64,000 nucleotides of DNA from contig NC_086097.1 of assembly GCF_963921235.1 (NCBI RefSeq), forward strand, positions 72,914,001 to 72,978,000. Direction: 5' to 3'. The DNA is from Mobula hypostoma (lineage: Eukaryota). The notes beneath the pieces were generated by a model. That model saw only the letters and a list, made by a program, of their open reading frames with translations, did not search any database and was not told the DNA's origin. Positions 27,479-33,125 of the stretch are shown here, one piece after another. Made by a program: the position numbers and the translations under genes. Numbering within the stretch: the first letter of the stretch is position 1; each line of letters starts with the position of its first letter.

Positions 27479-30400
27479 TCTAACCAGCCAACTGAATTCA
27501 TGCCTCAACATTAAATGTGCTGCAAAATAGCAGTTCTCTGTAACAATTAATTAAATTGATCCAGCTATTACCATACACTCCTATGAATACATTATGGTAA
27601 TGATACATATTACATACTCATTTCACAAATCATAGATTTTCCACTGCTCATACGAGTTATCCTTTTAAGTTTCTTCCATTTCACACTGAGTTTTATTATT
27701 CTGTAGTTTAATTTCCCTCAGTTATGAAAATTATAATATGATTAAGGTACAGGCCTGGAGGTGCTGATAATGTGACCCATTCTGCCTCTTCTTTGCTTTG
27801 ATACTGACACTGATGAGATGATGACTACTTCATCATCATCTTCTGCTACATTTCCTGCAGCATCCAACCAGCATCTTGTTAATGAAATATCTTCTCTTCA
27901 GGGAGTCCTTTGGGGTCAAGGATTACTTGCTTCCACTCTAGATCTGAGGGATGGAAACTATTTATGCATGAACTACACTAACATGGTATGGTCTTTACTC
28001 ACCAGCTGTTATGTGGCCTTGATAGAATGCAGTCCAGGTCCAAAGGGTAGGAGGTCCAAGACAAGCGAAGATCAAAATCTTCTACAAGTTTTTCTGACAC
28101 CCTTTCATTCACACTCTTCTTAAGACGATAAGATATAGGAGCAGAATTTGGCCATTAGGCCCATTGAGTCTGCTCTACCATTCAATCACGGCTGATTTAT
28201 TTTCCCTCTCAAGCCCATTCTACTGCCTTCCCCATGTAACCTTTCACACTATTACTAATCCAGTATTTATCAGCCTCCACTTTAACTATGCCCAATGGCT
28301 TGACCTTTTTGTAAAACAATGAGTGAATGTCTCTCGGGTCGAAAGAACACTTAACTCTTTCTAAGCTCACAGCATGTGAGGTCTGTAGAGTAAACATTGC
28401 AGGTCTGTTAAGGTCTGTAGATAGCTGGATTCTTTCTTCAGGATATGTATGTAAACATTAATGTCCTTTGTAAGACCAAAGAATACTGTTTCTGGACATT
28501 GGAGGACTAATGAATAAGGAGTGACCATTAAAATGTCTAATTGATTTATGAGCGTATGCTGAACACTGTGTTAATGGACATGAAAGAAACCAGACTGAGT
28601 AATAGCATGAGAAGAAAAAAAAATCAAAGAGATTATCTGTCTTGTGGTTGCACTGCACTGGTGAAGTTTGTGCATATATTGGGCTATTTTTGGATTTTCC
28701 TTGAATTTCAAAAGGGGGCAGAAATCGTGACCAGTGCCTGTGAGCAAAGGTTGTTTTCATGAGCGAATCAGAAATTGGAGTTCCCCCGACAACAGTAATA
28801 ATCAAGTGGTGATTAAGAATCGTGAGCCCAGAAATCTTTGTGGAAATCTTTGTGACTTGTTACATAGTTATCTTGTGTGGTTTGTTAGTGCTTTCTATTT
28901 TATGATAATAAATTAGACTTAAGTTACTTTGTTGTACTTGTATCATTATTACCGCATCTCCTGGACACTTGGCATGTTGAGTCTGATCAATCCAGCTTGC
29001 TGTACTCTGGCAGTGAAGCAGGGTCCAGGATAATGTGGAGGTGGATAAGCAAGTCGAATGACACTGTACCTGAGACTTATCAGGTTCATGGATGGATGGA
29101 TAACTCTGAGGGTTTTGAATCACTGGCTAATGTTCAGAGTAAATGGGGTCCTCCTAGATGTAGGGAGAAGATATTTGTTGAATTGTCTGATGTTAAGATT
29201 CCATGTGTAGTATCACAATGCTTTAAGCATATAGCTTTTTCCTCTAAGAGGGATTCTCTCTCTCAAGTGGGGTGGATTTTTATGACTATATTGTGGCAAT
29301 TGAGTGTTAAAACATCTGAGCTCTCTGAGGAGAACAAGTGTCTGAAGCACAAGTTGGCCTCTTTGAGTTCTCAGAACATGATTTTTCTTGTGTTTTGTGA
29401 GGGAATGTTGCACACCTACAGTGACTGGCCTCATACAACTTTTTTTTTGTGAAACAAGTAAAGTGCCAAATTGATTGCTACTTGGCTCTTGCACCCCTGA
29501 TCACAATATAGTGCTTGTAAATCTTACTTATTATGTTCAAATTGTCAACAAAATGTTGTTAAGATGATTTTAAAATATATGTCCTCATCCTTTAGGGATA
29601 TAATTTCTCATATTTTATAAATCATGATAATATTAGTTTTAATTGTTCAAGGGATATTAATAAGTATTCTTCGTTTTGAGCAGAAGGAAAAATTCTATGT
29701 GTCTCTAACCTAAACAGACATTCAGGGCATGGAATGTAAAATATTAGATTTTGTAAAACAATGAATGAATTTCTGTCAGGTTGAAAGAACACTTAACTCT
29801 TTCTAAGCTCGCAGCATGTGAGGTCTGTGGAGTAAACATTGTAGGTCTGTTAATGACTAAACGTCTGTTAACATTTGTAGAATGCCTGTTTATAGCTGGA
29901 TTCCTTCTCCAGGTTTATTGCTTATACGTGTAAACACTATTGGCCTTTGTAAGTTCATTTCTGCACTTGGAAAGTTGTGCATAAATTGGGCTGTTTGTTT
30001 TTGGATTTTCTTTGGACTTCAACCCAGGCCAGAAATCACATTCAGTACCTGTGACCAAGGAGTGGTGTTGCGTATTTAATATTTCAGTAGTATTTGAGTA
30101 ATATTATAAGAATTTTGTTTGTTTAAATAATTCATATTGAGTTATATATATAAATATGTGAATTGCCAATATCATCATGCTGCTATGTGATATGTTTTGG
30201 TCTCGCTTAAAGTAAACAAAAAGTTAGACTCACATTTAGGGCTTCTGTGTCTTCCTTTGAATTAGTTTAATGTTTTGAATTTACAAACTATAACACTGGC
30301 GATGAGTATTTTGAAAACAAACCAGAGACAGCTATTGACGTGTTGAAGTGCAGCAAGATATTTGGACTAAAAAAGAACATGGTGAGTGATAAACACAGCC

Positions 30401-30497
30401 CAGCACATGCAGTTGAGTTTTTAAAAAGGCAGAAAATGGTAGAATTCACAAGTTCATAAAGAGTGAGGATGATAATAATTATTTTAAAAAAGTAGAA

Positions 30498-31735
30498 ATG
30501 GCTGGCTCCATCAGAAAGATTGGTACATTTGATTCCACAAGAGATAACTGGCTTATGTATACTGAGCAAATTGAACAGTATTTTGAAGCAAATGAAATAA
30601 CCATTGAGAAATGATTACCAAATTTTTTGAGTACATTGGGCTTACAGGCATACATTTTGTTTCGAAGTTTAACTGCTCCAACCAAACCATCCAAATTGAG
30701 CTTTGCTGATATTGTGAAAGCGGTGCAGAAATATTTAGAGCTGAAATTATTATTGATTGCAACATGCTTAAGGTTTCATAAGCACAAGCAAAAGGAAGTG
30801 GAGTCCATTTCAGCATATGTGGCTGGACTGTGAAGATTGTCTGAGCACTGTCAGTTCAGTAATTGACTTAATGATGTATTGAGAGATTGTTTAGTTTGTG
30901 GAATCTTACAAGAGAGCATTCAAAAATGGCTCCTAACTGAAGCACCACACACATTTCAAAGAGTAGTTGAAATAACTGTATCAATGGAAACAGCAGACAG
31001 GTGCAAGTGAGTTGCAGTCAGGAATGAAAGTGAGCATGAACAAAATTGTAACATCTAACAGAAACTGGCCTGGCTGAGCTAATTGTGTTACCATTGTGGC
31101 AGGGGCTCACATACACCAAACCAATGCAGATTTAAAGATGAAACTTACAGAAAATGCAACAGAGTAGGACACATACAAAGAGTATATTGGATAGACAAAA
31201 ATAAATGCACAGTACGGAAAAGAAAAAAAGACAAAAAGTCAAATTGCAATTTCAAAAAGAGCAGTAATCTGCATACTGTGAATGAAAAATATGATAATGA
31301 TGAGAGTTACACAGAACTATGTAGCCTTGAGATTTATAGGGTGAAAATAACACTAGACCAGCAATATGGATTACACCAGAAGTGAACGGCAAATTAATTA
31401 AAATGGAATTGGATACTTGCTCAGCTGTTTCAGGCATTCCACAAAATGAGTTTGAATAGCATTTCAAAGATACTAGACTGAAGCCTGCAGATATTCAGCT
31501 GAGAATTTATACTGCAGAACAGATAACTTCTGTGGGAATGACATTCGTAACAGTAAAATCCAACAACCAACAAGCCACGTTGAGCTTGTATCTGGTAAAA
31601 ACAGTATTGTCGGCACAGGATTGACTGAAGCAACTACAACTTGATTGCGGATCCATCCGCCATTTGCATGCCACATCCCCTTCAATGAAATCAACTGAAA
31701 GCAAACAAAGAAAGGTATTGGATGATGCCATAACT
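30498..31735 (+). pseudogene. Gypsy gag (tandem CCHC knuckles) and aspartic protease, decayed
   Basis: MAGSIRKIGTFDSTRDNWLMYTEQIEQYFEANEI; CYHCGRGSHTPNQC..KCNRVGHIQRV; VNGKLIKMELDTCSAVS (a DTGS-type motif). Confidence 0.88.
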
Positions 31736-31739
31736 GTGT

Positions 31740-32348
31740 CCATGATGTACACCATAAACTATTCCCCAACAGAGAGCAAACAGGTGTTGGTAACAACCTC
31801 CGTGCCTCTGGTTGGGAAGCATATTGGACCAAGGAAGGGCCATGCTGCTCAGAAGAAACAGAAATATCACAAAAGCTAAGGTCCCACTACAACAGTTTTT
31901 ATAGGCAACATATCGAGAAAGATTCTGTTATGCTAATCAGACAGTTACTGCAAAACATGGCTTAGTTTAAAGCAGGAAGAGAGTTCAAGGAACTTCAGGA
32001 AAGTTGTAAGCATTCAGCTTTTGTGAGTACAAAGAACCAGATCTACTGTGCTTACATTAAGGTTATTGCATGAACTTCAAGTGAGAGACAAAAAGCTGCT
32101 TGTAAAAGTAGATGCAAAGACCAAAGCCTAGCTGGGTGAATGGAAGGCCAAAAAGAAAGGAGTAAATGGAGATATGAAAACTGAGGATTTGATAGATGAT
32201 GCTGTGGATGAGGAAACCAAGAGAAGAGATCGGATCATAAAGGGAGCATTAGAAGGATTAATAAGAGAATATTCCAGTGAACTAAATGCAACTTCCCAAG
32301 ATCACAATGCCCAAACTAGAAGAATAAAAAGAAAGAAGAAGAAAAAGG
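31740..32348 (+). pseudogene. RBM25: Processed (intronless) RBM25 fragment covering the RRM region, captured in the Gypsy element
   Basis: Across frameshifts it reads VLVTTSVPLVGKHIGPRK, GPTTTVFIGNIS, MLIRQLL, KRVQGTSGKL*AFSFCEYKEP, LRLLHELQVRDKKLLVKVDAKTKA*LGEWKAKKKG, DEETKRRDRIIKGALEGLIREYSSELNA, collinear with vertebrate RBM25 as I recall it. Confidence 0.88.
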
Positions 32349-33125
32349 TGGTTACTGCTGACAGAACTACTTCCTGTAGTCTCAGAGTGAACTCCTACAA
32401 TCGCCACAAAGGAGATTACAGAACCTGAAATTATTTCACAGCCTTAAGTCTCTCCTTTCAATAAAGTAACCTCCCTTGTCAAGAAAGACTCAGTCCCACA
32501 AGAGTAAGAAATCCTCCACAGTGATTAAACCTTTAGGCCTGGATAGGTCAATTTAAAATGTATTATGTCCCCGAGGATATCTGTATATAGTGGTTGTATT
32601 ATATAGTATACTGTGTAGGTAGTTGAGATGCATTTTCTGTTGAGTTGGAGTTCATAGCTAATCAGGAAGGAGAGTTGTGTATTTAATATTTGAGTAATTT
32701 TCTAAATATATTGTTTGATTAAGCAGTCTTGTTTGTTTAAATAATTAATTACAAATTATATGTATAAATACATTAATTGCATATGTCACCCAATGTCCAT
32801 TTTTGCCTCTTTTGCTCTTTATGTACTTTAAAAAACTACCACGTGATACATTTGCACCTCACTTAAACATGAAGTTAGACTGACATTTAAGGCTCCTGTG
32901 TCTTCCTTTGAATTAGTTTAATGTTTTGAAGTTACAAAACATAACAGGTGGTTTTACAAGCAAGTGGGAAATCAGAATTCCTCCGACAACAGCAACAGTC
33001 ATGTGATGACTAAGAATTGTGAGCCCTGAAATGTTTATGGAAATCTTTCTGATTTTCTCCGTAGTGATTTATGTGGTTTATTTATGCTTTCTATCTTATG
33101 ATAACAAATTAGGCTAACAAATTAG

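Follow-up and report, generated by a model that had tools for sequence, protein, structure and literature searches.

How does a long terminal repeat (LTR) retrotransposon come to carry part of a host splicing factor in place of its polymerase genes? The question is raised by a decayed Gypsy-type element at positions 30066-32946 of a 64,000-nucleotide stretch of the Mobula hypostoma genome (RefSeq assembly GCF_963921235.1, contig NC_086097.1, 72,914,001 to 72,978,000, forward strand; the whole stretch is called the window here), in which a piece of RBM25 coding sequence stands between the protease and the end of the integrase. Computational analysis of the window, of sister copies of the element and of the host gene revealed that the insert is spliced and that the element belongs to an amplified family. 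The chimera was probably produced when reverse transcriptase (RT) switched templates onto a spliced RBM25 mRNA, and was then amplified in trans with its RBM25 part carried along as a tolerated passenger.

The foreign segment had been assigned from the letters alone to the RNA-recognition motif (RRM) region of RBM25, and database searches bore this out. The natural 283-amino-acid open frame of a sister copy (L010) matched RBM25, with a best E value of 1e-64 among long proteins, and the 120 matches listed were all RBM25 or unnamed or hypothetical proteins with the same RRM; identity to RBM25 of Heptranchias perlo was 79%. The host gene, located with the C terminus of gar RBM25, lies on the minus strand of G000:C1 at ~99.79-99.84 Mb. 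A PF01480 match on C2 was rejected as host RBM25, having no RBM25 match within 100 kb. Compared with the host gene, the insert of the window copy links exons B, X, C, D, E and F and crosses five exon junctions, so it does not lie within a single exon; eight junctions are crossed in longer copies, which also contain exons G, H and I. Introns of ~5.8, 3.4, 1.7, 2.8 and 4.8 kb have been exactly removed in the copies, and AG..GT boundaries flank all eight host exons from X to I. Exons C, D, E and F were collinear in 30 of 30 copies of the first search and exon X was present in 28 of these (blastn), with the last 9-10 letters of exon B standing before it. Widened junction loci contained RBM25 exons in 19 of 20 cases, one of which (L184) spans X through I.

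Exon X lies at G000:C1:99832633-99832586 (L051), with the sequence VSMLYTMNRCPTEGKQ, opens the Heptranchias RefSeq model, directly follows exon B in a Logan-derived protein (P0200) and occurs in shark RBM25 models, Heptranchias having four extra residues after it; it was absent from the six bony-fish and frog RBM25 proteins viewed, and from gar. Judged by these gene models, exon X is a genuine RBM25 exon. The copies and this host share the residues ESDESS, unlike the two chondrichthyan proteins seen (DNDENS and ENDENS), which suggests that capture took place after the split from those two lineages.

Around the insert, the order previously proposed (LTR, primer-binding site (PBS), gag, protease, insert, pol C-terminal tail, polypurine tract (PPT), LTR, with a 5-bp target-site duplication (TSD)) was recovered with all parts located, every one on the plus strand:

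30061..30065, +, 5' copy of the 5-bp TSD (AGTGG); the 5-mer is present at the empty paralogous site 28750-28754
30066..30295, +, 5' LTR with TGT...ACA ends
30297..30306, +, PBS, complementary to the 3' end of tRNA-Ser(GCT) in 9/10 letters
30498..31340, +, decayed Gypsy gag with a CCHC knuckle, stops and frameshifts
31358..31725, +, degenerate aspartic protease plus linker, ending at the point where RT starts in the parent family
31726..31735, +, putative 5' crossover, in frame: 7-nt microhomology shared by parent and RBM25 exon B, followed by the final letters of that exon
31736..31783, +, RBM25 exon X, 48 nt
31784..32170, +, RBM25 exons C, D and E, introns gone (RRM)
32171..32347, +, RBM25 exon F followed by what deletions have left of exon H (its start) and exon I (a piece), up to the purine microhomology of the putative 3' crossover
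32348..32536, +, C-terminal tail of Gypsy integrase (..TRVRNPPQ*LNL*)
32664..32672, +, PPT
32673..32946, +, 3' LTR, first base mutated
32947..32951, +, 3' copy of the TSD (GGTGG)

Two LTRs with TG..CA ends, a PBS, a PPT and a TSD in the 4-6 bp range are all features of an LTR retrotransposon, and by its sequence the element is a non-autonomous derivative of the Gypsy group (Metaviridae). Its gag, with stops read as X, is 62% identical to a K02A2.6-like Gypsy polyprotein of catfish (P0121) that has RT, RNase H and integrase domains; gag, CCHC knuckle (at 31086), protease (motif DTCS at 31412) and integrase C terminus all align with such fish polyproteins. These are encoded as a single gag-pol frame. 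The window element aligns to residues 1-345 of the sturgeon polyprotein (P0125), where the alignment ends, and the chimera has no counterpart of ~residues 346-1190, which in P0125 hold RT, RNase H and the integrase core; the integrase tail, as seen in sister copies, corresponds to the last ~20 residues of polyproteins of this type. About 3 kb of pol, comprising RT, RNase H and nearly all of integrase, has therefore been replaced rather than interrupted. Replacement of the pol core by RBM25 at 31740-32348 had been described before, and stands, but the insert starts at ~31726 rather than 31740. In Pfam, gag gave a weak zf-CCHC_5 match (E 0.03, below the cut-off), and the broken reading-frame pieces of the window gave nothing above the cut-off within the element. 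The PBS complement was matched against tRNA-Ser(GCT) genes of the same genome (15 pattern matches; both of the two fetched were called tRNA-Ser).

The two copies of the window element's TSD agree in 4/5 letters. The element sits inside an older repeat, and because an uninterrupted paralogue of that repeat (~28300-28920) holds the 5-mer only once, the duplication is read as 5 bp with one later change. Two copies of this unnamed interspersed repeat occur in the window (28300-28920 and 29750-33115), one of them the insertion target. The LTRs are separated by a Kimura two-parameter (K2P) distance of 0.23, and the RBM25 insert bears three one-base deletions as well as stops, so the copy is dead, as had been supposed.

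The window is rich in long interspersed nuclear element (LINE) RT frames, and insertion of a LINE-derived RBM25 retrocopy into a Gypsy element, or segmental duplication, could in principle have given rise to such loci. Neither junction of the RBM25 insert, in the window or in sister copies, showed poly(A), an inner TSD or an L1 site; the insert is truncated at both ends within the coding region; the pol core is gone rather than split; both junctions recur genome-wide; and 17 different flanks carry 5-bp TSDs. An origin by LINE retrocopying or segmental duplication is refuted by these observations and deserves practically no credence, and capture by the LTR element, favoured in the preliminary description, was upheld.

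Capture by template switching calls for a parent element with its own RT. A pattern for the parent-type junction (protease end into Gypsy pol) had 268 exact matches in the genome and a pattern for the chimera-type junction had 92, with none for reversed controls, although the two patterns differ in stringency and the counts are not strictly comparable. Eighteen of the 20 parent loci fetched matched the reference polyprotein well beyond the junction into RT-type sequence (L089 and L090 barely did). These loci have the order protease, RT, RNase H, integrase, with no env in those fetched, and share gag-protease with the window element at 71-88%; on this comparison an autonomous parent Gypsy family is present in the same genome. 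The 5' crossover falls on a stretch of 7 nt, TGCCACA, common to parent and mRNA, and 12/16 letters agree over a span that includes the B|X splice junction; the reading frame is preserved through the crossover (DDAT, then TVSM). Since the B|X junction exists in mRNA only, this microsimilarity was counted for mRNA template switching. The 3' crossover lies at a 9-nt purine microhomology between parent and exon I, GAGAAGAAA. Microhomologies of at least 7 letters arose in 0.06% of random junction pairs, and those of at least 9 letters in 0.004%. Together with the presence of the parent family, these microhomologies lend support to the earlier suggestion of RT template switching.

We propose that a spliced RBM25 mRNA was co-packaged into a particle of the active Gypsy family, where RT would have left the integrase tail for the mRNA at the exon I purine microhomology, copied the message back as far as the end of exon B, and rejoined the element at the 7-nt microhomology just past the protease. 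Both LTRs, PBS, PPT and gag-protease would have survived in the product, while RT, RNase H and all but a remnant of integrase would be gone. Alternatively, an RBM25 cDNA may have replaced the pol core of an already integrated element by microhomology-mediated recombination or break repair at the DNA level. Spliced cDNA can be captured during break repair (PMC4516963), which would likewise leave microhomologies and no poly(A), but microsimilar crossovers at both ends and sense replacement of internal open reading frames (ORFs) form the pattern reported for template switching (PMC5131818), and later recombination of the chimera with its parent points to co-packaging. One copy (L014; G000:C67, ~49.97 Mb) is such a recombinant, with ~225 nt more integrase after exon F. 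We regard a DNA-level origin as very improbable.

Six loci (L060, L062, L071, L084, L100 and L105) are parent copies with internal deletions that join RT/RNase H regions to the integrase tail. Some parent deletions fall near the RBM25 crossover, suggesting a switching hotspot at this purine-rich site. Over gag-protease, the distance between chimera and parent (0.217) scarcely exceeds those within each (0.214 and 0.210), and only 8/1131 columns differ, so the two form almost one population and therefore spread together. The chimera was thus probably copied in trans by the enzymes of its parent, in the same burst, to thousands of sites.

First-look searches for the chimera yielded 2882 candidates by DNA and 3788 by RRM protein similarity, and the 40 DNA candidates scored were all near full length at 82-85% identity. 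Because 2/55 copies found without the junction pattern match that pattern exactly, copy number was estimated at ~2530 (95% range 734-20746). These counts confirm that the chimera is an amplified non-autonomous family, as the preliminary description had suspected, of roughly 2,500-3,800 copies. TSDs were scored against a null of shuffled flanks in the 17 of 35 examined copies with both ends placed: at least 3/5 letters matched in 14/17 and at least 4/5 in 8/17 (null, 13% and 3.3%), and the flanks were distinct in all 17, as after integrase-type insertion. The mean K2P distance between paired LTRs was 0.22 (n=11); copies lie 0.19 from each other and 0.14 from the host RBM25 gene. Two copies (L155 and L166; G000:C91, 14.73 Mb and 12.60 Mb) have an identical 3' junction stretch and are probably segmental duplicates, and at one locus (L124) the junction pattern is present without RBM25 behind it.

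The chimera is not confined to Mobula. Two Hypanus sabinus RefSeq models have a copy as their first exon: a GTF2IRD2-like model (XP_059848386.1, P0189), whose first 80 residues derive from a chimera copy, starts with the protease-RBM25 junction, and so does an isoform of MSRA (XP_059837650.1, P0201), a case that suggests exonisation of a chimera copy. The best Mobula match to P0189 reached only 71% among 150 candidates scored out of 2546, and Hypanus is thus apparently a second species with the chimera; no orthologous Mobula copy of the P0189 locus was identified among the same 150. A candidate counterpart of P0201 (G000:C2:37949405-37949581) stands out at 76%. The junction was also bridged by contigs from four of four other organisms (four studies), one of which could be Hypanus; the runs behind these contigs are only guessed to be RNA. 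No shark protein with the protease-RBM25 junction turned up in protein searches, which is weak evidence of absence.

The insert varies at its 3' end, where internal deletions form a series. Both exon F and the tail could be seen in 60 of 84 copies, of which 38 are short like the window copy and 22 longer, the longest containing exons G and H and the first 35 nt of exon I. The window copy has the shortened form, and its A/G-rich end, previously read as plain poly-Lys codons, proved instead to be a deletion composite of the end of exon F, the start of exon H and a piece of exon I. A two-letter change at the end of exon F creates a 9-letter match to the start of exon H, and the commonest form has lost the RE-rich part by a frame-shifting deletion between these matches. 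We infer that a host-like long form acquired the two-letter change, then the F/H deletion, and then further losses in purine repeats; the purine-repeat part would have been trimmed by microhomology deletions over successive rounds until the short form of the window copy was reached. The RE-rich part was probably lost because of its purine repeats. One long-form copy (L021) has a tandem expansion in the integrase tail.

Whether the RBM25 piece ever served the element was addressed by comparing nonsynonymous (N) and synonymous (S) change in 55 of 59 copies (L119, L124, L132 and L135 were excluded because their cover or identity was low); the 30 copies that had been recovered through RRM protein similarity were left out as biased. 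Changes private to single copies gave N/S rates of 1.12 (transitions) and 0.99 (transversions), stops arose at the same rate, and frameshifts numbered 3.4 per copy, with 5/55 copies free of them. The private changes are neutral and the copies have decayed neutrally. No captured ORF that looks preserved occurred among the best 150 of 3788 candidates, in which identity to fish RRM was at most 89% and the longest stop-free frame was 311 amino acids. A Gag-protease-RRM fusion had also been proposed. Its protease-RBM25 join is open in natural copies (L008, L010 and L027) and in the window copy (frame 31625-31879), but the RBM25 frame continues into the integrase tail in a frame different from that of pol.

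That open join invites a different account of the same capture, in which a Gag-protease-RRM fusion, an RRM released by the protease, or RBM25 RNA acting in cis aided packaging, export or stability and was selected during the spread. Human RBM25 RRM binds RNA (PMC3553564), the copies number in the thousands as against one or few for known transduced genes (PMC7264820), and captured genes in crocodilian endogenous retroviruses (ERVs) are under purifying selection (PMC4299795). However, variants at intermediate frequency are mostly nonsynonymous and weakly linked (r <=0.41), and subfamily markers are too weakly linked for a selection test on internal branches. The dominant form arose by a frame-shifting deletion, the tail is read out of frame, the loss of the RE-rich part is accounted for by its repeats, and the parent, which has no RBM25, has more exact junction matches than the chimera (268 versus 92, at unequal stringency). 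In-frame fusion is in any case common among young LTR retrocopies (14/17; PMC5131818). With the private changes neutral, we consider selection for the RBM25 piece unlikely, and the piece was most likely a tolerated passenger, all examined copies being dead.

Several observations weigh against a passive capture by RT switching. The RRM is kept in every structural form seen, whereas the part behind it is lost. Differences from the host present in at least half of the copies comprise 22 synonymous and 5 nonsynonymous changes, unpolarised, since all four other organisms carry the chimera and none could polarise the synonymous ones. Change on the host side alone predicts 12-17 synonymous differences (P 0.006-0.16, depending on the rate used), an excess that leaves room for some purifying selection in the element lineage. 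The scars from which template switching is read could also be left by DNA-level recombination with free cDNA. Finally, TSD scoring was impossible in 18/35 copies, and 3 of the 17 scored match in two letters or fewer.

A more far-reaching reading of the synonymous excess is that the RBM25 piece helped an RT-less element compete for the enzymes of its parent as a satellite retroelement equipped with a splicing-factor domain taken from the host, and that the flood of copies then exposed an essential host gene to anti-transposon small RNAs, speeding synonymous divergence in the captured exons. We regard this as a doubtful, speculative extension.

Template-switching capture by the parent's RT has clear precedents. 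Tan et al. (2016; PMC5131818) described LTR-mediated retrocopies from flies to mouse, zebrafish cases included, in a set of species that did not extend to cartilaginous fishes. As in those cases, a partial mRNA replaces internal ORFs in sense orientation, often in frame and without L1 hallmarks; microsimilarity marks both switch points (median 6 bp there); and the product was copied again as a non-autonomous element. By the features compared, the RBM25 chimera is an LTR-mediated retrocopy that behaves as a non-autonomous element, but unlike the published cases it represents a single capture that led to thousands of copies in several species and to an internal-deletion series. The crocodilian ERV captures (KIT-ligand in CrocERV29 and nectin3 in CrocERV31; PMC4299795) are likewise old, shared between species, and derived from host mRNA in LTR elements that kept replicating. 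Those elements are Retroviridae with 6-9 copies, pol kept and complete ORFs under purifying selection, whereas the RBM25 chimera is a Gypsy element with pol lost, a partial insert and no intact captured ORF in the best 150 of 3788. Maize Bs1 and human HERV-K/FAM8A1 also carry spliced host gene fragments in an LTR element, but at low copy number and not in vertebrate Gypsy families, Bs1 carrying three genes (PMC5131818, PMC7264820).

The capture mechanism is therefore known; the scale and the deletion series are without counterpart in the literature searched. No report of an RBM25 retrocopy or LTR family was found there, Repbase, Dfam, subscription journals and supplements lying outside the search and possibly holding the family as an unnamed repeat. 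The locus and its relatives provide an unusually complete record of retrovirus-style capture by a vertebrate Gypsy element, in which donor gene, isoform, parent, crossover scars and trimming are all readable, and illustrate that one LTR-mediated retrocopy can grow into a repeat family of thousands, where the published cases compared reached one to nine copies or few sites. The family opens to testing whether captured host domains ever help LTR retrotransposons to spread, and how an essential gene copes with thousands of look-alikes in silenced repeats. There are also consequences for annotation: chimera copies can enter gene models, as in the two Hypanus proteins, and may be lost from retrocopy pipelines that filter repeat-overlapping candidates (PMC13320880).

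Directly 3' of the element, the window contains a LINE-like copy (33126-36970) whose ORF1 is of the esterase (GDSL) type and whose ORF2 is broken, and many similar LINE frames occur elsewhere in the window.

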